The notes: a model not told the origin generated them from the letters alone. A DNA stretch of 40,835 bases from Candidatus Latescibacterota bacterium (GCA_041661365.1 JBAZUN010000003.1:1-40835), one strand, 5' to 3'. Counted from the stretch's first letter, positions 8,440-40,660 are shown. Program-made: numbers and translations.

Positions 8440-11208
8440 ATGAACAGAGCGACGTACCGCCTCCCGCCGACCCGGCGTCGGTGGGTCTTCCCATTGGCTA
8501 TCCTGTTGTCGGCCTGCCTGGTCGCCTCGGCATCGGCCGAGCCCCTTCAGGTCTATCCGCTGTCCGCCGACCTCGGCACGATCAAGGTGGGAGCCCGCAA
8601 GACGACCGAGGTTCAGGTCACCAACACCGGCACCGAGGCGATTGAGGTCGAGGTCACGGTCGACGGCCGCCTGTTCACCGTCTCGCCGGGCACGGTCCGT
8701 CTGGCCCCGGGAGAGAAACGACCGGTCGCGGTGTCCTTCTCCGCCGCGACCCCGGGAACCTACCAGGCCGAGCTGCTGCTGGCCCTCAAGGGGTTCCTGG
8801 CCACGCAGGAGGTCTCCGTCTCCCTGAAGGCCGCGGTCACCGCCGTCTCGGTCATCCTCGTGCCCGACCCGGCCGAGGGGCTGGCCCTGGGATCGGTGGC
8901 GGCCGGCGATACGGCCAAGCAGTCGGTGCTGGTGAGCAACGCCGGCGAGGTTCCGGTGGTCATCGACTCGGTGACCCTGGCGGCCGAGGACGGGGCCTTC
9001 GCGGTGCAGGTGCCGGCGCGTTCCGAGGTGCGCCCCGGCGACCGGCTGACCATCGCGGTGCGGTTCTCCCCCCCGACCGGCGAGCGGTACGAGAACCGGC
9101 TCGTCATCCACTCCGCTGACCTCAACCCCTCCCGCCAGGAATACGCCCTCACCGGCGACGGCCGGGTTCCCGACGCGGTCTTCTCGCCCCTGACCGACGT
9201 GGGCCTGACCTTCGGCGAGGTCGCCCTGGGCGAGACCCGCACCCTCGAGCTGACCGTGCTGAACCGCGGCCAGGCCGACCTGCGGATCGCCGAGGTGGAG
9301 ATCACCAGCGGCGCCTTTGCCACCACCTGGGACCCGACCACGGCGGCCCCGACCAGGCCGGGGCAGCGCCAGACCATCCCGATCGCCTTCCATCCCACGT
9401 ACGAAGGGCGGGCCAGCGGCCGGCTCATCGTCCACAGCAACGATCCGGAGCAGGGCGTGGCCGAGATCCCGCTGCTGGGCACGGCCCGCGGGAATCCGCC
9501 GCAGGTCGAGGTGCTGAGCGAGGAGCGGATGGAGTTTGGCAACGTGACCGTGGGCAAGCAGGAGCGCGACCAGCTCCTGCTCTGGAACCGGGGTGGGCTG
9601 CCGTATACGGTGGTCCTCGACCTGGAGGGGGAGGCGGCCGAGGACTACCTGCTCGAGAGCCCCTCGGTCGTCGTGCAACCCGCCGAGGTCCGCAAGGTGC
9701 CGATCCGGTTCAAGCCGCGGCAGAAGGGGGACCGCCGGGCCGAGCTGGTGGTCACCACCGAGTCGGGAACGCGTCGCATCGGCCTGCGGGGGATCGGCAA
9801 GTTCCTCGAGCTGTCGCCCCTGTCGGTCGACTTCGACCGGGTCGTGGTCGGCAAGACCGGGACGGTCCAGACCGAGATCCGCAACCTGGGGAACGCCGAT
9901 TTCACCGTGACCAGCGTGATCTCGACGAACCCGATCTTCACGGCCAAGTCGCCGGTCTCCGCCTCCTCCCGCTACGTGCTGCAGGCGGACACCCTCAAGT
10001 CCCTGCCGATCAGCCTCGGCTTCACCCCCCCGGGGCGGGGAGCCTTCAGCGGGGTGCTGCAGTTGCAGGGGTACTGGGACGACGCCCTGGAGACCCGCGA
10101 GCTCCTCCTCGGGGGCACCGGCATCGCCGCCGATCTGGAGCTCTACCCGGCCGGCCCGTACGAGTTCGACTACGTCGTCCTGGGTCAGGAGCTGGCCCAG
10201 TCGGTGGTGGCCACCAACACCGGCGACACCGACCTGAAGGTGGAGGCCCACGCCGAGTCGCCCGAGTTCCGCGTGGAACCGGCCGAGGCCTCGCTCGCCC
10301 CGGGCCAGGCCGCCACGCTCAAGCTGATCTTCACCCCGAGAGGCCTGGGCAGCCGCAGCGGCACCATCCGCCTCATCAGCAACGACGTGCGCGAGCGGGC
10401 CCTCGCCCTCCAGGTCAGGGGCAAAGGCGCCCTCGACAACGTCGACCTGGCGCGGGTGGTGTCGGTCCTCGGCTCGCGCAAGGGTAAAGCCGACACCCTC
10501 GAGGTGGCATGGACCAACACCCCCCTGGTGGTGGCCGACGAGACCAAGGTCGACGTGGTGCTGAACGTTCCCGAGGCCCTGCGGCCCGCCCTGGTCGGCC
10601 GGCGCTTCGACGTGGAGTGGATCCAGCTCGACAACAACTACGACGAGCAGGGCGGTCCACAGAAGACCGAGGTCCAGATCCTGGACGCCGGGGAGGAGCG
10701 GGTGCTGGCGGAGAAGCTGAGCCTCCGGCTGGTCGAGGCCGGTACTCGACGGGTGCGCCTCAAGGTCTCCACCCAGAACTACCCGGGGGCACCGGCCTAC
10801 GGCATCACCCAGATCCTCGAGGCCGGAGGATGGAAGTGGGAGTTCGAGGCCAAGCCGCTGGTCTCGTTCCTCTCCATCCGGCCGTCGCGGACCTACGTCG
10901 ACGACAAGGGGGACACGGTCAAGGGGGATACCGAACGGCTGGTGGGTCTGCCGGGGTTCGCCTTCTTCGGCTACCACAACGCCGAGAACCCGTCGATCTC
11001 CGGGGTCCACCTGACCGCCACCGGGAACGTTCTCGAGGCCCTGTCGACCGAAAACTCGATCGCGGTCTCTCTCGGGGTCTCGCTCTCGTTCTACAAGGAT
11101 CGCTTCATGTTCGGCGTGGGCTGGGACGTGTACGACCATCGTCCCAAGGCCAGACGCCGAGGCACGGCCGACTACATCACGACCTTCAAGTACTGGGGAC
11201 TTTTTTAG
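8440..11208 (+). CDS. secreted protein with six tandem Ig-like (ASH / choice-of-anchor-D-like) repeats and a C-terminal beta-barrel-like domain
   Basis: Signal peptide WVFPLAILLSACLVASASA. Six repeats of about 105 aa share the pattern L.FG.V.vG......l.v.N.G...l.v....…F.v......l.PG....l.v.F.P. The C-terminal ~250 aa have alternating-hydrophobic strands and end in YITTFKYWGLF. Confidence 0.85.
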   Translation: MNRATYRLPPTRRRWVFPLAILLSACLVASASAEPLQVYPLSADLGTIKVGARKTTEVQVTNTGTEAIEVEVTVDGRLFTVSPGTVRLAPGEKRPVAVSFSAATPGTYQAELLLALKGFLATQEVSVSLKAAVTAVSVILVPDPAEGLALGSVAAGDTAKQSVLVSNAGEVPVVIDSVTLAAEDGAFAVQVPARSEVRPGDRLTIAVRFSPPTGERYENRLVIHSADLNPSRQEYALTGDGRVPDAVFSPLTDVGLTFGEVALGETRTLELTVLNRGQADLRIAEVEITSGAFATTWDPTTAAPTRPGQRQTIPIAFHPTYEGRASGRLIVHSNDPEQGVAEIPLLGTARGNPPQVEVLSEERMEFGNVTVGKQERDQLLLWNRGGLPYTVVLDLEGEAAEDYLLESPSVVVQPAEVRKVPIRFKPRQKGDRRAELVVTTESGTRRIGLRGIGKFLELSPLSVDFDRVVVGKTGTVQTEIRNLGNADFTVTSVISTNPIFTAKSPVSASSRYVLQADTLKSLPISLGFTPPGRGAFSGVLQLQGYWDDALETRELLLGGTGIAADLELYPAGPYEFDYVVLGQELAQSVVATNTGDTDLKVEAHAESPEFRVEPAEASLAPGQAATLKLIFTPRGLGSRSGTIRLISNDVRERALALQVRGKGALDNVDLARVVSVLGSRKGKADTLEVAWTNTPLVVADETKVDVVLNVPEALRPALVGRRFDVEWIQLDNNYDEQGGPQKTEVQILDAGEERVLAEKLSLRLVEAGTRRVRLKVSTQNYPGAPAYGITQILEAGGWKWEFEAKPLVSFLSIRPSRTYVDDKGDTVKGDTERLVGLPGFAFFGYHNAENPSISGVHLTATGNVLEALSTENSIAVSLGVSLSFYKDRFMFGVGWDVYDHRPKARRRGTADYITTFKYWGLF

Positions 11209-32269: not shown

Positions 32270-34528
32270 TCAACCGATCTCGGCATCCAGCACCACGGCG
32301 CCGCGGCCCGGGATCTTGACCTGAAGGGTCGATCCGGCCGGGACGACCGGGAAGAGCGGGAAGCGGCTCCTGACCTGCAGCCGGGCGATCGGTCGCTCGA
32401 GGTCGACCCCGGCGAGGACGTACCCGGGCCCATCGTTCCCGAGCAGCAGCCGGATCGCTCCCCCCTCCAGCTCGAAGGCGGTCACGCGCACCCGGGCCGC
32501 GCCGCGGATCACGCGCGGGGTGCCGGTGCAGCGCCGGATCACCTCAGCGCAGGCGTCGAGGAAGGTCCCGGATACCGGGACAAAGACCAGATCCTCGAGG
32601 AAGGACAGGGGCTCGGTCACCTCTTCGCTCGAGGTCGTGCGGGGGAACGAAGGCTCCTCTCCCTCTACGGCGGTTCCGCGGTCCGACATGCGCATCGGAG
32701 TGTCCTCCGAAAGGAGGATCCGATCAGCCGGCACCCCGTAGACCGCACAGGACGCGGCGCCTCGCTCAGGTTCGTCGGCAAACCCGACCACCGGCTCGGG
32801 CAGACCGTCCGCGGGAGGACCGAGCAGGATGACCGGAGCTCGAGCGCCAGCGAGGAGCCGCTCGAGCTCGGCCACGGGCCAGAGGTGGGGATGGAGAACC
32901 AGCAGGGGACCGGTGACCTGGTCGAGATGCCCCGCATCGACCGCGGCAACGACCGGCGCGCCGTGGGCTGCCAGGGCGTGGAGCCAGCGATGCGCGGTCC
33001 AGCCACGGCTTCTGGGGAACTCCTCGAGGTGTCGGTCGAGGGCCACGTCCGACCAGACCACGGTAGCCCCGAGGACCCGCACCGGGTGAACGGCGAAGGC
33101 CAGGTCCCAGGTCTCGCGCAGCCAGCGCCACTCCTCGGGCCGGATGCCGTCGGCCAGGCAGACCACCGGCCCTCGGGTGCACGGCTCGAGAGACAGGACT
33201 GGACGCCGAGGTCTCGACGTGGTGACAGGCGCGACAGGCTCCCCTGCTACATCGGCCGAACCCGTTGGCGAACTCGCTCCTGCTGACGCGGGCGAGCCAG
33301 GCAGGGGCAAGGCTGCTGGCCCGATCGACGGCTGCGGCGCTTCGATGCGATCCGCGCCGTCGGTAGCGGACTTCCACAGGTAGAGGTTCCCGAGGGTCAG
33401 GATCTCGCGCTCGAGCGAGGTCGGCGCGTGGCGCAGGACGTTCCACTGCTCGCGGGTGTCCTTGACCCCGCACAGATTGCGCAGGGGCACCCCCGGCATG
33501 GCGGCCTTGAGCAGCAGCAGCATGGCCGCGAAGTCGTGCAGCACCCGGGCCGAGGACTCCTCGCGCTCGGTCTCCGAGGCGGCCGCGGCAGCCTCGACGA
33601 TGAACCCGTCGACCCCGGCCCGCACCAGGCGCCGGTAGTCCACCCCGTAGCGGTACACGGCCTCGAAGGGATCGCGGGTCCAGCAGGAGTTGAGCACCAC
33701 CTGCCGGCCGATACCGTGCACCGCGTCCGTCACCTTGGCCCAGAACCGGGTGAAGCGCTCGACCCGGAAGCCGCGCCACGCCGAAGACCAATGCGACCAG
33801 ATCCAGTCGGCCCGGCCGCGGATACGGGCCGGATCGCCGTCCGTTGGCGCGGCCAGCGTCGCGGGGAGCCGCAAGCCCGTGGCCGTGAGGAACTGCCCGA
33901 CCAAGTCGTCGGAATAATCCCCGTCGTAGATCGCCAGCCGCGGGTGGCCGTACCCGTCGGCCCCGTGGTACCCGTCGAAGCCGTAGTCCCGCAGCACCCG
34001 CACCAACCGATCGACGAAGAAGTCCTCATAGAGCGAGCCGTCGGCCAGCCGCTTCTGCGGACAGACCGAGGCCAGGCGCTCGCCGGTGCGCCGGACGAAC
34101 AGGATCTCCGGGTGGCGGCCCAGCCATTCGTCGCTGACGAACAGGTCAAAGACCGCCGGGTACACGGCGATCCCGTGCCGGTGCAGGGTCTCGACCAGGC
34201 CGCGCAACTGGCCCCAGGTCCAGGCCTGCCGCTCCCGCTCCTCGTTGCGCGGGTGTCCGGCATAGGAGCAGCAATCGACCGGCAGCAGCCGATCCGGATC
34301 GAGGCGATCGTGGAGGTGAACGAAGTCCGGGTTGAAGAGGAGGAGGGAGACCGCCTCGGGCACGAACCCCGTGGTGTCGAGGAACCGGTCGACCCCGTAG
34401 TCCGGGGCCGCGTGGTCAAAGCCGATCAGCTCGATCCAGAACCAGCGCTCGTGGGTCGCGGCGCCTATCCCGGTCGGGGTACGAACCGCCGTGGCGTGCC
34501 CGCAGTCCGCAGGGGGATGCTTGCTCAT
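32270..34528 (-). CDS. hypothetical two-domain protein, N-terminal glycoside-hydrolase-like TIM-barrel candidate
   Basis: ATG 34528 (MSKHPP) overlaps the stop of the upstream gene (ATGA), in frame inside ORF 32270..35152. Contains GFDGYHGADGYGHP-type segments, a Pro/Ser/Ala linker, and a C-terminal domain of about 270 aa. Confidence 0.7.
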   Translation of the reverse strand: MSKHPPADCGHATAVRTPTGIGAATHERWFWIELIGFDHAAPDYGVDRFLDTTGFVPEAVSLLLFNPDFVHLHDRLDPDRLLPVDCCSYAGHPRNEERERQAWTWGQLRGLVETLHRHGIAVYPAVFDLFVSDEWLGRHPEILFVRRTGERLASVCPQKRLADGSLYEDFFVDRLVRVLRDYGFDGYHGADGYGHPRLAIYDGDYSDDLVGQFLTATGLRLPATLAAPTDGDPARIRGRADWIWSHWSSAWRGFRVERFTRFWAKVTDAVHGIGRQVVLNSCWTRDPFEAVYRYGVDYRRLVRAGVDGFIVEAAAAASETEREESSARVLHDFAAMLLLLKAAMPGVPLRNLCGVKDTREQWNVLRHAPTSLEREILTLGNLYLWKSATDGADRIEAPQPSIGPAALPLPGSPASAGASSPTGSADVAGEPVAPVTTSRPRRPVLSLEPCTRGPVVCLADGIRPEEWRWLRETWDLAFAVHPVRVLGATVVWSDVALDRHLEEFPRSRGWTAHRWLHALAAHGAPVVAAVDAGHLDQVTGPLLVLHPHLWPVAELERLLAGARAPVILLGPPADGLPEPVVGFADEPERGAASCAVYGVPADRILLSEDTPMRMSDRGTAVEGEEPSFPRTTSSEEVTEPLSFLEDLVFVPVSGTFLDACAEVIRRCTGTPRVIRGAARVRVTAFELEGGAIRLLLGNDGPGYVLAGVDLERPIARLQVRSRFPLFPVVPAGSTLQVKIPGRGAVVLDAEIG

Positions 34529-35556
34529 GGCGCGCACACGTCGCCGTGCTGCACGGCCTGGCGGTTCGCCTCGTCGACGATCACCTGGGCCATCAGCCCG
34601 TCGTGGCCGGTGGCCAGGGCCGCCGGCGGTGCGATCCCCTGGGTGACCACGGTCGCGAAGTCGGCCAGCAACTGCGGGATGACCGCCGCGTGCCCCTCGG
34701 TGGGGAACTCCCGGGTCTCGGTCAGACCGGCGCTGACCAGGCGGACTGTATCCCGACGGGCCGCGGTGTCCCGCCGGAAGTCGATCACCCCCGCGGTTCC
34801 GACCAGCACGATGCTGTCGTGCAGGTCGCGCGGCTCGATGTAGGCGGTGTACGCGAAGCTGGCGTTCAGGGTGACCAGCACCCCCAGGTCCAGCCTCGCC
34901 TGGACGGAGATGTGCGGCGGGAAACGGACCTGCTCGCCGAACCAGGCCCCGGTGGCGTGGACCTCCTGCCAGCGGCCGCCGCCGCAGTAGTACCGGGCCA
35001 GGTCGAGATGGTGGATGCCGCAGTCCAGGCAGCCGCTGGCCTCGGTGAACCGGTGCCGGCGCTCGGCCAGCGGGCCGAAGACCTTGTGGCCGTCCCAGAA
35101 CTCGTTCATGTGCACGGCGTGGACCCGGCCGAGATGGCCGGCCTGGACCCATTCCTGGATCTGCCGGTGAACCGGGCTGTACCGGTTCTCGAAGTCCACG
35201 GCGAGGAAGCGATCGGCAGCCGCGGCCGCGGTGACCATCCGCTCTCCGTCCACCGCGTTCATGGCGATCGGCTTCTCGGTGACCACGTGCAGCCCGGTGG
35301 CCAGGGCGGCCAGGACCGGTTCGAGGTGCACCTCGCAGGGGGTGGCCACGTAGATCGCGTCGAGCTCCTCGCGGGACAGCATCTCGGCGTAGTCTTGGTA
35401 CCGCGCCAGCCCGGGCTCAGGCCACTCGAAACGCTCCAGGCTCTCGGCCGAAAGGTCGGCGACCGCGGTCAGGCGGACGTTGGGACATTCCCTGAAGGCC
35501 GGTCCCACGGCCCAGCGCGCGTGGTTCCCGCAGCCGATCAAACCGAATCGCAGCAT
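34525..35556 (-). CDS. Gfo/Idh/MocA family oxidoreductase
   Basis: ATG 35556 preceded by AGGAGGAGGA. Rossmann N-terminus MLRFGLIGCGNHA and an EKP motif (VVTEKPIA). Confidence 0.9.
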   Translation of the reverse strand: MLRFGLIGCGNHARWAVGPAFRECPNVRLTAVADLSAESLERFEWPEPGLARYQDYAEMLSREELDAIYVATPCEVHLEPVLAALATGLHVVTEKPIAMNAVDGERMVTAAAAADRFLAVDFENRYSPVHRQIQEWVQAGHLGRVHAVHMNEFWDGHKVFGPLAERRHRFTEASGCLDCGIHHLDLARYYCGGGRWQEVHATGAWFGEQVRFPPHISVQARLDLGVLVTLNASFAYTAYIEPRDLHDSIVLVGTAGVIDFRRDTAARRDTVRLVSAGLTETREFPTEGHAAVIPQLLADFATVVTQGIAPPAALATGHDGLMAQVIVDEANRQAVQHGDVCAP

Positions 35557-35577
35557 CGTCCTCCTCCTGTTCCCCAA

Positions 35578-35777
35578 GCAGCCCGTTGAAAAAGCCGCTT
35601 TGCCTGGCGAGGCCGAGGGATGGCGGGGCCTGGCTAGGCGCGCGAGCAACAGCGCATCGAGGGAAGATGCGCAGCGCGAGCGGCACAGGGACGTGGCCGG
35701 ATCGAGAGCGATCCGGCACACGACGCCAGGGCCCGTCAGCACCGGCCGCAGCCCTAATGGGCTTTTCAACGGGCTGC
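35578..35777 (+). repeat. structured intergenic element, copy 4 (unassigned family)
   Basis: Closing helix gcagcccgttgaaaaagcc/ggcttttcaacgggctgc. Same core blocks as copy 2. An extra 9-bp hairpin lies at 35696-35717. Confidence 0.75.
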
Positions 35778-35780
35778 TAA

Positions 35781-35891
35781 GTCAGGTCCGCGGCACCCGC
35801 AGCAGGAGCACCGGCACCTGGACGAGGTGGCGCACCTTGTCGACGGTGCTGCCGTAGATCAGGTCGCTGAGGAAACGGTGGCCGTGGGTCG
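35781..35891 (-). pseudogene. orphan duplicate of the usp 3' end (last 36 codons plus stop)
   Basis: 110/111 identical to 37705-37815; the only difference is A35843 versus G37767. Confidence 0.85.
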
Positions 35892-36029
35892 GTGAGCAGG
35901 GAACCATCAAGGTGGACCGTCCGGGTCGTGGCCGCTTGGATCGGTTCTCCTGCCCGTCTCTCCGGAACTACCACCCGGCTAGGCCGGCGACGCCGGCCGG
36001 GTCAACCCCGTAGACAAGGAGATTGCCGC

Positions 36030-37577
36030 ATGGAACGACGCAACTTCGTCAAGAGTCTGGCCGCAGGGGCTGCACTCGTGCCCCTTCTCGCCGAGGTCGC
36101 CCAAGCCTTGTCGGACGGGCTGGAGGCCCTGCGCGCCGATCTGGCGGCAACCCCGGACGACGCGGCCTACTGGGCCAGGGTCCGGGAGGAGTTCACCGCC
36201 CTCGAAGTGGTCTACTTGAACAGCTCGACCATCGGCGCCACGCCGCGGTCGATCATCACGGCGCTGTGCGGGTACCTCGAGCGTCTGGAGAGCTATCCCC
36301 GCAGCTACGTATTCGGGGGCTTCCCCGGAGCCTCGATCGAGACGGTGCGCCAACGGGCCGAGGAGTTCCTCGGCGCGTCGGATGACGAGGTGGCCATCAC
36401 CCACAACACGACCGAGGGGATGAACTACGTCGCCACGGGGCTGAAGCTGCAGGCCGGCGACGAGGTGCTGATGACCGACCAGGAACACCCCGGCGGCACT
36501 GCCGGGTGGCAGTACCGGGCCAAGCGGGACGGCATCCGCATCGCCACCATGTCCCTGCCGACGCCGGTGGAGAGCAAGGAGCAGATCCTGCAGCTCGTCG
36601 AGGACCACCTCACGCCGAACACGCGGGTCTGTTCCTTCTGCCACATCATGACCGAGACCGGGCTGCAGATGCCCCTGGCCGAGATCGCCGCGATCACCCG
36701 TCCCCGGGGCATCTTGCTGGTCTGCGACGGCGCCCACGCCCCGGGCATGCTCCAGGTGGACGTCAAGGCCCTCGGGGTCGACACCTACGCCTCCAGCAGC
36801 CACAAGTGGATGCTGGCGCCCAAGGGCAGCGGCCTGCTCTACATCAGCAAGGAGGTGCAGGACCGGATCCAGCCGGTCGCACTCTCCGGCGGATACGGGG
36901 TGTATTCCGGCGCCTCGGGCACGCCCAATACCCCGCACGTCCTTGCCCACGGGGACACCATGGCCTTTCACAACACCATCGGCCGCGACCGCGTGGAGCG
37001 CCGCGTCCGGCAGCTCCAGGCCTACCTCCGCGCGCGGCTGACGGCGATCGGCGCGACGCCGCTGGTCCCAGACGTTCCTGAGCTGTCCTCCGGCGTCACC
37101 AGCTATGCCTTCTATTCTTTCAGGGGCCGCAACTCGGACAACCTATACCAAGAGCTCAAGAAACGGGGCATCGACGTGAAGGCGGAACCCCGGAACTCCC
37201 TGCGCATCTCGACCCACATCTTCAACAGCGAGGAGGAGATCGACCGGCTGACCGACGAACTGAAGAGCCTTCGGGGGGTCACCTCCGTCGGCGAGACCGG
37301 GAGCGCCCTGCCCAAGGCGGTCGGCCTGCAGCAGAACTACCCGAACCCGTTCAACGCTTCCACGCAGATCCGCTACGAGCTGCCGGCCGACGGCAACGTC
37401 CGCCTGGAGATCCTCGATGCCTTGGGGCAGATCGTCGACGTCCCGTTCCGCGGCTGGCAGACCGCCGGCCGGCACGAGCTGCTGTGGAGTGCCGGCCTCT
37501 TCGCCACCGGAACATACCTGTGTCGACTGGTCGCCGACGAGGAGACGCAGACGCGCAAGATGGAGCTGGTCCGGTAA
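36030..37577 (+). CDS. class V aminotransferase-fold PLP enzyme with Tat signal and T9SS C-terminal sorting domain
   Basis: ATG 36030 preceded by AAGGAG. Twin-arginine motif ERRNFVKSLAAGAA. PLP-lysine motif SSHKW. C-terminal LQQNYPNPFNASTQIRYELP...GTYLCRL is of T9SS/FlgD-Ig-like sorting type. Confidence 0.85.
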   Translation: MERRNFVKSLAAGAALVPLLAEVAQALSDGLEALRADLAATPDDAAYWARVREEFTALEVVYLNSSTIGATPRSIITALCGYLERLESYPRSYVFGGFPGASIETVRQRAEEFLGASDDEVAITHNTTEGMNYVATGLKLQAGDEVLMTDQEHPGGTAGWQYRAKRDGIRIATMSLPTPVESKEQILQLVEDHLTPNTRVCSFCHIMTETGLQMPLAEIAAITRPRGILLVCDGAHAPGMLQVDVKALGVDTYASSSHKWMLAPKGSGLLYISKEVQDRIQPVALSGGYGVYSGASGTPNTPHVLAHGDTMAFHNTIGRDRVERRVRQLQAYLRARLTAIGATPLVPDVPELSSGVTSYAFYSFRGRNSDNLYQELKKRGIDVKAEPRNSLRISTHIFNSEEEIDRLTDELKSLRGVTSVGETGSALPKAVGLQQNYPNPFNASTQIRYELPADGNVRLEILDALGQIVDVPFRGWQTAGRHELLWSAGLFATGTYLCRLVADEETQTRKMELVR

Positions 37578-37704
37578 GGGCTCGACAGAAGCCGCTGGCC
37601 GGCGACGCTGGAGGACCGGGTGCAGAGATTCCCGTGCCGCCGGAGCAGCGATGACGTCATAGGGCTACATCGCCTTCAGCGTCTTCCTGGCCAGGACCTC
37701 CGCG

Positions 37705-37815
37705 GTCAGGTCCGCGGCACCCGCAGCAGGAGCACCGGCACCTGGACGAGGTGGCGCACCTTGTCGGCGGTGCTGCCGTAGATCAGGTCGCTGAGGAAAC
37801 GGTGGCCGTGGGTCG
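37705..37815. repeat. direct repeat partner (genuine usp 3' end)
   Basis: Matches 35781-35891 at 110/111. Confidence 0.85.
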
Positions 37816-38134
37816 ACATGGCGATCAGGTCGACCTGCTTCTCCCGCGCCAGGCGGATGATCTCGTCCGCCGGCTCCCCCATGACCAGGGAGCACTCGAC
37901 CTCGAACCCCTCGGCCTGCAACTGCCGGGTCTGCTCCTCCAGGTAGGTCAGATCCTGTCGGATCTCCTCGCTGGCGGCCAGGTTCAACTGGTCGAAGTTA
38001 CGCGCCGCCCACCCGTCCGCCACGTGCACCAGGAGGAGGGTCGCACCGGTCAGCTTGGCCAGGGGGCGGATGTGGTCCAGGATGACCTGGTCGGCCGCGG
38101 TGTTCTCCAGCGGCACGAGAATCCGATTGTACAT
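37706..38134 (-). CDS. universal stress protein (UspA family)
   Basis: MYNRILVPLENT..LLLVHV..DLIAMSTHGHRFLSDLIYGSTADKVRH..PVLLL. AAAGGAG RBS. Confidence 0.9.
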   Translation of the reverse strand: MYNRILVPLENTAADQVILDHIRPLAKLTGATLLLVHVADGWAARNFDQLNLAASEEIRQDLTYLEEQTRQLQAEGFEVECSLVMGEPADEIIRLAREKQVDLIAMSTHGHRFLSDLIYGSTADKVRHLVQVPVLLLRVPRT

Positions 38135-38148
38135 CTGCCTAGCTCCTT

Positions 38149-39531
38149 TCAGCCGGCCGGATGGACGAGATACGCGGTCAGGCCGGAGAAGTCGGCCAGG
38201 TACTTCACGTTGAGGACGACGATGACCGTCGCCACGGTCCAGGCCAGGGTTTTGAGCCAGAGGGGATTGGTAAACTCACCCATCCACTTCCGGTCGCTGG
38301 TGCACACGATGAGTGGAATCACCGCAAACGAAAGCTGCAGACTGAGGACCACCTGGCTGAGGATCAGCAGCTTGGCCGTGCCGCTCTCGCCGTACAGGGC
38401 CGTGACCACCACCGCCGGGACAATGGCCAGGCCACGGGTGATCAGCCGGCGCAGCCAGGGCTTAAGGCGGATCTGGAGGAACCCCTCCATGACGATCTGA
38501 CCGGCCAGGGTGCCGGTGAGGGTGGAGTTCTGCCCCGAGGCCAGCAAGGCCAGGGCGAAGAGGGTACTGGCGATCGGCACCCCGAGCAGGGGCGAGAGGA
38601 GTTGGTAGGCGTCGGCGATCTCGGCCACCTCGGTCTGGCCCCGGGTGTGGAAGGTGGCCGCGGCGATGATCAGGATGGCCGCGTTGATGAACAAGGCCAG
38701 CATCAGCGCCACGGTGGAGTCGACGGTGGCGTAGCGGATCGCCTGCCGCTTACCCTCCGGAGTCCGCGCGAAGTTGCGCGTCTGCACGATGGAGGAGTGC
38801 AGGTAGAGGTTGTGGGGCATCACCGTGGCACCGAGGATGCCAATGGCGATGTAGAGCATCTCGGGGTTCCGGACGATCTCCAGGCGCGGCAGGAAGCCGC
38901 CGAGCACCTCCTGCAGCGACGGCTGGGAGAACAGGATCTCCAGGCCGAAGCATCCGCCGATCAGCGCGATCAGACTGATGACCAGGGCTTCGACGTACCG
39001 GAAGCCCCGGTTCTGCAGGTAGAGCACCACCAGCACGTCCAGCGCCGTGAGGCAGACCCCCCAGAGCAGCGGCAGCCCGAACAGCAGGTTGAGGGCTACC
39101 GCCGAGCCGATCACCTCGGCCAGGTCGCAGGCGCAGATGGCGATCTCGCACAGCACCCAGAGCCCGAACGATACGGGGGGTGAGTACCGGTCCCGGCAGG
39201 CCTGGGCCAGGTCGCGTCCGGCCACGACCCCGAGTCGGACGAACAAGGCCTGTAGCAGGATGGCCATCGCGTTGGACAGGAGGATGACCGAGAGGAGGGT
39301 GTAGCCGAAGGCCGACCCCCCGGCCAGGTCAGTGGCCCAGTTGCCGGGGTCCATGTAGCCGACGGCGACCAGGTACCCGGGCCCGCAGAAGGCCAGCATC
39401 CGCCGCCAGACCCCCGCGCCCTGGGGCACCGGGACGGTGGCGAAGGCCTCGGGCAGGCTCACCCGGGCGCCGCCTGCCGGTGACCCCGGCGGGCCGGTGG
39501 TGGGCGCCGGGGCAGCGGTTGGGGTAGGCAT
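38149..39531 (-). CDS. mntH: NRAMP-family divalent metal (Mn2+) transporter
   Basis: [24 protein letters not shown] and [13 protein letters not shown] motifs. ATG 39531 preferred; the GTG at 39573 is possible. Confidence 0.9.
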
Positions 39532-39676
39532 GGGGCTGCTCCCTGGTGTGACCGGACCGGTCCCGCGTGGCACGCCCGGCCCAGCCAGGTGGTGGTCGAG
39601 GCCGACCGAGTCGGTAGGGCGTGGGCTTGCCGAGGTGGCCCCCTAGACCTACTTTTCGTTGGCCTCTGGCCGCGTT

Positions 39677-39725
39677 ATTAGCATATCAGATGGCGCTAAT
39701 TTAGGAATAACCTAAACTCCGTCAA
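39677..39725 (-). promoter_or_regulatory. mntH promoter with embedded DtxR/MntR-type operator candidates
   Basis: Minus strand: TTGACG (39720-39725) - 16 nt - TAAATT (39698-39703). The spacer holds the palindrome TTTAGG-aataa-CCTAAA (39700-39716). An adjacent palindrome is ATTAGC-12 nt-GCTAAT (39677-39700). Confidence 0.45.
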
Positions 39726-39729
39726 CCCC

Positions 39730-40419
39730 ATGCCCACACACACGGTCGAGCAGTACCTCAAGGCCATCCACCGCCTGCTGGAGGTCCAAGGCAGGGTCGG
39801 CACCACCTCCCTGGCCCAGACCCTGGGCGTCAAGCCGGCGTCGGTGACCAACATGCTGCAGCGCCTGGCGCAGACGAGCCCGCCCCTGCTCGAGTACGAG
39901 CGCCACCGGGGGGTGACCTTCACCGCCGCGGGCCGGAAGGTGGCGCTGAGGGCCATCCGCCACCACCGTCTGCTGGAGTTGTACCTCCACCAGTTGCTCG
40001 GGTATTCCTGGGACCGGGTGCACGAGGAGGCGGACCGGATGGACCACGTGATCTCCACGGAGTTCGGCGACAAGCTGGCCGCCCTGATGGAGAATCCGCG
40101 GTTCGATCCCCACGGTGACCCCATCCCGACCCGAACCCTGGAGTTCCCGGAGTGCGACCTGGAGGCGCTGGGCGACCTGCAGGTCGGGCAGGTCGGGGTC
40201 CTGCGGCGCGTGCGCGACGACGACCCGGCCCTGCTGCGGTACCTGGGCGAGGCAGGGCTGGTACCCGGGGCGCGGTTGACCGTCGTCCGCAAGGAGCCGT
40301 TCGAGGGTCCGATCACGGTACGGGTCGGGCGGGGAGCGAAAGGGCCGGAGCAGTCGGTGGGCGTACGGATCGCCCGGGTCCTCCAGGTGGCCCGGGAAGG
40401 TAGGAGAGGACCGGGTTAG
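39730..40419 (+). CDS. mntR: DtxR/MntR-family metal-dependent transcriptional regulator with C-terminal FeoA/SH3-like domain
   Basis: N-terminal wHTH TVEQYLKAIHRLLE..TSLAQTLGVKPASVTNMLQRL. Metal-site helix RHHRLLELYL. Divergent from mntH. Confidence 0.85.
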   Translation: MPTHTVEQYLKAIHRLLEVQGRVGTTSLAQTLGVKPASVTNMLQRLAQTSPPLLEYERHRGVTFTAAGRKVALRAIRHHRLLELYLHQLLGYSWDRVHEEADRMDHVISTEFGDKLAALMENPRFDPHGDPIPTRTLEFPECDLEALGDLQVGQVGVLRRVRDDDPALLRYLGEAGLVPGARLTVVRKEPFEGPITVRVGRGAKGPEQSVGVRIARVLQVAREGRRGPG

Positions 40420-40528
40420 AACGGGGAACGAGTCGCCCGGACCGAGAACAGGGCCGGCAGCATGAGGTCGAGCTCGGACGGCGAGGGAGCCCGGAATCCA
40501 CGGCCCACTGAGGCGCGCAGGGCGGTCC

Positions 40529-40660
40529 CTTCCGGATGGTGTCTACCGATTCCTTGCAGCGAACGTCGCGGTGCTGCGCGAGCACCGCGGGATCATGCAT
40601 GCCACTGACGATCGCCCGGATGATCGTCATACCGGTGACCCCGGTCTCGGTAGCATCCAG
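40529..40660 (-). pseudogene. IS110-family-like transposase fragment
   Basis: LDATETGVTGMTIIRAIVSGMHDPAVLAQHRDVRCKESVDTIRK resembles the central segment of DEDD (IS110) transposases as I recall them. An in-frame stop lies upstream and the similarity is lost downstream. Confidence 0.35.

Follow-up and report, generated by a model that had tools for sequence, protein, structure and literature searches.

What placed a single gene for a secreted enzyme between two nearly identical copies of the end of a neighboring stress protein gene? We asked this of a 40,835-nucleotide stretch of DNA from a Candidatus Latescibacterota bacterium (GCA_041661365.1 JBAZUN010000003.1:1-40835), referred to below as the window, in which direct repeats of the 3' end of a universal stress protein gene, usp, bracket a gene for a class V pyridoxal phosphate (PLP) enzyme. 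The repeat is most likely a real, recent and ordinary scar of recombination between related strains and not a new kind of mobile element. Our account of its origin, which we hold tentatively, is a homology-anchored insertion of a related strain's PLP segment that displaced the resident usp tail. The scans for repeats and recombinases reported here refer to the window, and relatives are given as numbered loci, L001 to L104. Among the sequence data behind the relatives are the runs SRR22387929, SRR22388082 and SRR22388164 and the IMG sets 3300038439 and 3300042991.

A usp 3' end duplicated around one intact gene

The two copies, one at 35781-35891 and the other at 37705-37815, lie in direct orientation, are each 111 nt long and agree at 110 positions (99%); both are read on the minus strand. 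The right copy forms the functional 3' terminus of usp (37706-38134, minus strand), a gene for a 142-aa protein that matches Pfam Usp over residues 1-138 (1.2e-28). The left copy consists of the usp stop codon and the last 36 codons, and the usp body is absent: upstream of THGH..., the usp frame reads GQENRSKRPRPGRSTLMVPCSP, which is not usp-like. Identity between the copies extends 1 nt past the usp stop codon. Their sole mismatch is A35843 on the left and G37767 on the right; in the usp sense it lies at position 49, where a C to T difference turns the alanine codon of the right copy (GCC) into the valine codon of the left (GTC). An earlier note on this DNA, made from the sequence alone, had described repeats differing at this one base, a genuine usp end on the right (the last 36 codons plus the stop, now backed by the Usp match of the whole protein) and an orphan with valine for alanine on the left, whose upstream frame we find unrelated to usp; all of this holds. 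The att-like geometry that it pointed out is likewise present: a single gene separates a displaced orphan tail from a usp made whole again. Within the window the pair is unique: a 62-nt core of the repeat occurs exactly twice against an expectation of 0.00 (none in 100 shuffles), and no other repeat of at least 40 nt is found there. An in-frame ATG ahead of the orphan tail creates a possible 41-aa open reading frame (ORF; 35782-35907, minus strand; MVPCSPTHGHRFLSDLIYGSTVDKVRHLVQVPVLLLRVPRT).

The 1,813 nt between the copies contain one ORF with a coding signature (35892-37577), with a GC content at third codon positions (GC3) of 0.88 and its real start at the ATG at 36030. The gene so delimited (36030-37577, plus strand) encodes a PvdN-like class V PLP enzyme with a twin-arginine-type N-terminus (MERRNFVKSL...) and a C-terminal sorting domain of the type IX secretion system (T9SS). 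Its product matches Pfam Aminotran_5 at 6.8e-55; its best family match is PvdN, a periplasmic enzyme exported by twin-arginine translocation (Tat), at 3.9e-48 and below the family cut-off; and its tail scores 32.1 bits against a cut-off of 23 for TIGR04183 (Por_Secre_tail). The Aminotran_5 match, the N-terminus and the TIGR04183 score bear out the earlier description of a Tat- and T9SS-tagged PLP enzyme. That the repeats enclose exactly one gene is right as far as intact genes go, but a 3' remnant of about 42 nt from another gene, which we call X, is also present.

The X remnant (35941-35982, plus strand; ..VLLPVSPELPPG*) is truncated on its 5' side. At the same position L001 reads ..VAVILPVSPEPPPG*, where an ORF ends whose beginning lies past the edge of the contig, and by tblastn gene X was found only there and in the window remnant. 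The 49 nt between the left repeat and the remnant (35892-35940) are either decayed X or filler; they are about 56% identical to L001, blastn extends the L001 match to 35911, and no other match was found. The sequence of L001 ends about 17 nt short of the joint at 35891|35892. A 474-aa gene beside a fucosidase in L015 was considered as a candidate for X and ruled out.

Four junctions delimit the arrangement. From left to right, a terminal inverted repeat (TIR) element meets the left copy at 35780|35781 (CAACGGGCTGCTAAGTCAGGTCCGCGGCACC), the left copy meets the X remnant at 35891|35892 (GGTGGCCGTGGGTCGGTGAGCAGGGAACCATC), the spacer downstream of the PLP gene meets the right copy (CCAGGACCTCCGCGGTCAGGTCCGCGGCACC), and the right copy continues into the usp body (GGTGGCCGTGGGTCGACATGGCGATCAGGTC). 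The novel joint is 35891|35892, and it is sharp.

The comparison of base composition and codon usage that the earlier note had proposed yielded no foreign signature, the GC content and GC3 of the insert being those of the neighboring genes. Since this composition is native, the source of the insert, as judged from it, is a close relative or the same genome. Exact-protein look-ups of the window's usp and PLP proteins returned no identical record elsewhere.

Neighborhoods of usp and of the PLP gene in relatives

We compared what lies directly downstream of usp among its relatives. The named homologues of usp, of the PLP enzyme and of the left-flank Gfo/Idh/MocA oxidoreductase (MocA) point to Latescibacterota- or Gemmatimonadota-like bacteria, and three flank types were seen. 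In the first, type a, the usp stop codon is followed by the PLP spacer, as at the window's right copy and in L001 (93% identity), an independent assembly from another sample. The spacer (37578-37704) is common to the two, so the right junction has been assembled independently, and the PLP enzyme is 94% identical in amino acids to its counterpart on L001 (P0001). Type b occurs in L012, L013 and L100, whose flank differs from the window's and is common to all three. L012 is 97% identical in nucleotides across the usp gene and its partner, an Nramp gene, and loses homology 2 nt past the usp stop codon, where a different convergent gene follows; L013 and L100, with usp at about 83% nucleotide identity, have a 31-nt motif in common with L012 at the same offset (p < 1/300). 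The type b flank is probably ancestral on this comparison. Type c, the TIR element followed by MocA, is found only at the window's orphan copy.

Homologues of the PLP enzyme at 71% and 56% identity lie in unrelated neighborhoods, never beside usp. Because these homologues never adjoin usp, and because L012, L013 and L100 carry another flank, the position of the PLP gene beside usp is, by this comparison of loci, a variable and derived arrangement and not the ancestral one. The age of the duplication can be set against it. The junction of PLP gene, spacer and usp is common to a lineage that differs by 7%, whereas the two repeat copies differ by 0.9%, which suggests that the duplication either is much younger than the junction or has been homogenised by gene conversion. 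The earlier note had named a recent event or gene conversion; near-identity set against a 7% lineage difference fits both.

The one mismatch carries some information of its own. We compared it with the 13 positions that are polymorphic among usp relatives and found that it falls on one of them, the variant base being the one that L013 and L100 carry. For a new mutation arising at random, the chance of hitting a polymorphic site with the relatives' base is about 4%, a figure that concerns a single site. Because the sole mismatch lies at a site polymorphic among relatives, the comparison modestly favors, ahead of a duplication in which the mismatch arose afterwards, the view that the copies are two pre-existing population alleles joined when strains recombined. 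Divergence from L012 was uninformative as a further clue, since it is about 97% identical in both the repeat region and the rest of usp, with no step. We also dropped the idea that the contig end of L001, which lies 30 nt (k-1 for k=31) past the variant site, marks a second repeat copy in that sample, because a co-occurring L013-type usp allele with the same next 31-mer explains the break equally well.

Two further features of these flanks were seen. The gene convergent with usp in L012 (L012:904-1007) ends in ..VYLCRMQAGPWVATRKVVLLR*, resembling the end of a T9SS sorting domain, so that a different T9SS-tagged gene stands in the place held by the PLP gene in the window. The PLP-usp spacer contains a perfect 10-nt palindrome, ATGACGTCAT, at 37651-37660, which is kept in L001 and could be the binding site of a regulator.

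A homology-anchored insertion as the tentative origin

The arrangement itself, the kinds of flank and the distribution of alleles are observed; from them we infer the following order of events and routes of recombination. The donor would be a type a strain in which the PLP gene already stood tail-to-tail with usp, in the order X, PLP gene, spacer and usp, as in L001. A piece of about 1.9 kb, comprising a partial X, the PLP gene, the spacer and the usp tail, would enter a recipient in which other DNA lay downstream of usp, and there the usp end, as the only homology on offer, would serve as the anchor. By one possible route the fragment would circularise and integrate through a single RecA-type crossover (Campbell-type integration); the other is homology-facilitated illegitimate recombination (HFIR), with the illegitimate joint, where microhomology would be predicted, at 35891|35892. 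Either would produce the resident usp tail with valine on the left, then truncated X, the PLP gene and the spacer, and on the right the incoming tail with alanine, joined to the usp body, and neither would need a dedicated integrase. The repeat would start at the stop codon because donor and recipient flanks cease to be homologous there, and an intact usp would coexist with an orphan of different allele because the insertion was anchored in the usp tail.

Several observations are consistent with this account. The anchor is present as a direct duplicate on both sides of the insert, and its 111 nt exceed a minimal recombination substrate; the donor-type arrangement exists independently in L001, where the PLP gene, spacer and usp tail are 93% identical; and the native composition of the insert is what a close donor would supply. 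Both routes have precedents. In E. coli, circular molecules that carry part of a homologous segment and integrate by a single crossover leave direct duplications of 109-950 bp (PMC3240628), and HFIR has been proposed to explain displaced orphan gene ends in natural Vibrio loci of type VI secretion systems (T6SS) and Rhs loci (PMC5361080, where de Vries and Wackernagel, 2002, and Prudhomme et al., 2002, are cited for HFIR).

The left flank and the search for a site-specific system

The left flank has a history of its own. The MocA gene (34525-35556, minus strand) is syntenic with L015 up to 35575, which lies 19 nt upstream of its start codon. In L015 (93%) and L016 (78%) a creatininase gene, not usp, precedes MocA, and the juxtaposition of MocA and usp is, among the loci compared, unique to this contig. 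In none of the relatives examined could the MocA block be linked to the PLP block through gene X. Downstream of MocA lies a large ORF (32270-34600, minus strand; about 776 aa from an internal start) that has no Pfam or NCBIfam match and is about 93% conserved in nucleotides in L015.

The gap between the end of L015 synteny and the left repeat is filled exactly by the TIR element (35577-35778), 202 nt with perfect 16-bp TIRs (AGCAGCCCGTTGAAAA...), which ends 2 nt from the left repeat. It is small and non-coding and folds very stably (z = -8.1), and together with its TIRs this hairpin potential gives it the features of a miniature inverted-repeat transposable element (MITE). Elements with the same termini and unrelated interiors occur on two unrelated metagenome contigs as hairpins of about 192 nt (L098:459-651, z = -12; L099:1720-1911, z = -7). 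The bases flanking the window element differ (CAAG and CTAA), while CTAG stands on both sides in L098 and L099. The element occurs once in the window and was not found in viral contigs or in the other 98 loci, and Rfam gave no match across 35300-38300. These likenesses probably make it a candidate MITE family, and its presence against the left copy presumably marks a separate, earlier rearrangement that set MocA beside usp.

We searched for the parts that a site-specific system would require. No integrase or recombinase domain was found in the bracketed segment, as the earlier note had said, or in the 26 scanned ORFs of the window. When other loci carrying the repeat were sought, as it had advised, a 41-nt core gave 0 matches in metagenome, genome and viral collections (exact-match scans only, of limited sensitivity). 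No relative was found to carry the empty-site allele, in which the TIR element would lead straight into intact usp. The insert is absent from L012, L013 and L100, but what follows usp there bears no relation to the left flank of the window and so offers no matching attB. The predicted empty site with usp beside MocA is contradicted by the creatininase gene that precedes MocA in L015 and L016. Of the two forms of insertion into the usp 3' end that had been put forward, the site-specific one is left without support, there being no integrase domain, no recurrence of the repeat core and no matching empty site, while the homology-mediated one gives the best reading. L104, a relative with usp at 77%, does carry a tyrosine-recombinase gene, split into two ORFs (8654-9994) about 3 kb downstream of usp and after a CMD gene and two PhyH genes; the usp tail was not found duplicated near it, and there is no att evidence.

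Weighing the alternatives

Every candidate mechanism yields the same end product, and we rank them with homology-anchored insertion ahead of a trimmed tandem duplication, followed by a decayed element or an assembly chimera. Several points weigh against our preferred account. The recipient allele, in which the TIR element would lead directly into intact usp, was not found among relatives, and the creatininase gene before MocA in L015 and L016 obliges us to assume an extra, earlier rearrangement. The allele argument rests on a single base. The account leaves unexplained why the TIR element lies 1-3 nt from the stop codon, which it must take as a coincidence, and the structure is known from a contig assembly. 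In an assembly chimera, the contig would join two co-occurring strains or loci through the usp tail or the TIR element and the left flank (MocA and TIR element) would be foreign to the rest. Several related strains at 83-97% nucleotide identity occur in related samples, the left junctions 35780|35781 and 35891|35892 appear in no independent contig, and synteny on the MocA side breaks exactly at the TIR element. Joining through a common repeat would nevertheless give one repeat copy and not two, the joint between repeat and X must exist in some real molecule, and the right junction was assembled independently in L001. The largest k-mers (127-141) and the read lengths used by common metagenome assemblers exceed 111 nt, which, if it holds for this contig, counts further against a chimera, and we consider one improbable.

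A duplication within the genome would dispense with a donor. Here the 1,924-bp segment 35892-37815 would have been duplicated in tandem and its first copy later trimmed by a rearrangement ending at the MITE-like element, for instance by recombination between two copies of the TIR element, bringing MocA alongside and leaving the 111 nt. The joint 35891|35892 is what such an event predicts, equalling 37815|35892 with segment end fused to segment start, and the TIR element sits exactly at the boundary of the left repeat and the end of L015 synteny without a target-site duplication, as expected had it mediated a rearrangement. An identity of 110/111 and an insert composition identical to the host suit a young in-genome event as well. 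What makes this origin unlikely in our view is that the element or deletion end must have landed within 1-3 nt of a stop codon in a fragment without function (roughly 1 in several hundred), that the sole mismatch recreates the state of relatives by a chance of about 4%, and that three events are required. Neither a second TIR element in the window nor a second copy of the interior (PLP gene and spacer) accompanies the doubled 111-nt tail. True attL and attR sites of an integrase-dependent element targeting the usp 3' end would account for the classic signature of direct repeats, one of which regenerates the target gene, with identity ending at the gene end. The element could be a decayed remnant, its integrase and the 5' part of X deleted, or a cis-mobilisable one serviced in trans, and the three flank types directly downstream of usp among close relatives and the split recombinase gene in L104 speak for something of the kind. 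Yet no recombinase domain lies in the insert or the scanned window ORFs, exact-match scans of the three collections showed the repeat core at no second locus, and L104 has no usp-tail duplicate; moreover the left flank is not the ancestral usp neighbor, the insert has a native composition, and on the left it begins with a truncated gene and not an element arm. We regard an att origin as doubtful, much as we do a chimera. Most far-reaching, and very improbable, is the idea that the usp stop-codon region is an attachment site dedicated to the swapping of single-gene cassettes that lack an integrase, with the recombinase encoded at some other place in the genome. The cargo of such cassettes would be secreted T9SS-tagged enzymes (the PLP enzyme here, the other T9SS-tailed gene in L012) in an uncultivated lineage of the Fibrobacterota-Chlorobiota-Bacteroidota (FCB) group, and the system would be distinct from integrons.

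Should homology-anchored insertion be correct, the locus would be a natural example of gene movement between closely related uncultivated strains by way of a short common coding stretch. It would illustrate pangenome turnover at a hot spot beside a widely transferred module, and current understanding would be unchanged; the scar would gain in importance only if cassettes turned out to attach at the usp tail repeatedly. As usp stays intact and the PLP gene lies between 111-bp direct repeats, general recombination between these could excise the gene precisely and leave usp with one tail.

The Nramp-usp module and the secreted enzyme

On the right, usp lies 14 nt downstream of its conserved partner, an Nramp/MntH transporter gene (38149-39573, minus strand). 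A genome scan with Nramp returned only relatives at up to 73% amino acid identity from many phyla, and no close reference genome. The Nramp-usp pair recurs with a divergent DtxR/MntR-type regulator (window 37706-40419; L018-L097 and L104; Nramp identity 62-73%) in Verrucomicrobiota, Gemmatimonadota, Bacillota, Bacteroidota and Alphaproteobacteria. This spread suggests that the module has been widely transferred, and a module boundary at the usp stop codon may be the reason for the variable content downstream. The N-terminus of an ORF at 40313-40630 is reminiscent of a transposase, but the ORF has no NCBIfam match, and we make no such claim.

In the PLP enzyme, a twin-arginine-type signal, MERRNFVKSLAAGAALVPLL, occurs together with the T9SS sorting domain. 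T9SS cargo is usually described as exported by Sec, and a cofactor-bearing cargo that passes through Tat and then T9SS may merit attention. Many homologues in metagenome-assembled genomes of Latescibacterota and Gemmatimonadota likewise pair Pfam Aminotran_5 with a T9SS sorting tail.

Comparison with known systems

Integrative elements are known to insert in the 3' ends of genes, and cis-mobilisable elements (CIMEs) that lack an integrase are bounded by attL and attR. The window resembles both in that direct repeats bracket an insert and the target gene is regenerated, and it resembles CIMEs in having no integrase of its own. It differs in that no integrase lies nearby, exact-match scans showed no recurrence of the site and no empty site matches, and also in that the insert is compositionally native and begins with a truncated host-type gene. 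With integron cassettes it has in common that one gene forms a unit between similar repeats about 100 nt long; here, though, the repeat is usp coding sequence and not an attC hairpin, and there is no intI, attI or cassette array.

Loci of Rhs, CDI (contact-dependent growth inhibition) and T6SS effectors provide a likeness in the displacement itself. In these, an incoming gene end and the gene downstream of it are inserted by way of a conserved upstream anchor, and the old end is pushed downstream as an orphan (PMC5361080, which cites Jackson et al., 2009, for C-terminal displacement and orphan 3' fragments). Their displaced ends are divergent toxin domains that accumulate in arrays under selection, whereas here the old and new ends are 99% identical, there is one orphan, and the gene carried along encodes a secreted PLP enzyme that has no relation to usp.

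Campbell-type integration and HFIR are laboratory events, and the window differs from them in being a single natural contig from which the event is reconstructed, the recipient allele not having been found. In other respects there is a likeness. One-sided homology anchors foreign or related DNA with no dedicated recombinase; when a circular molecule integrates by a single crossover, the anchor is doubled into direct repeats around the insert, at reported lengths of 109-950 bp (PMC3240628); and in HFIR the other end is an illegitimate joint. The scar at usp is of a known kind and not a new system, and it would not surprise a specialist.

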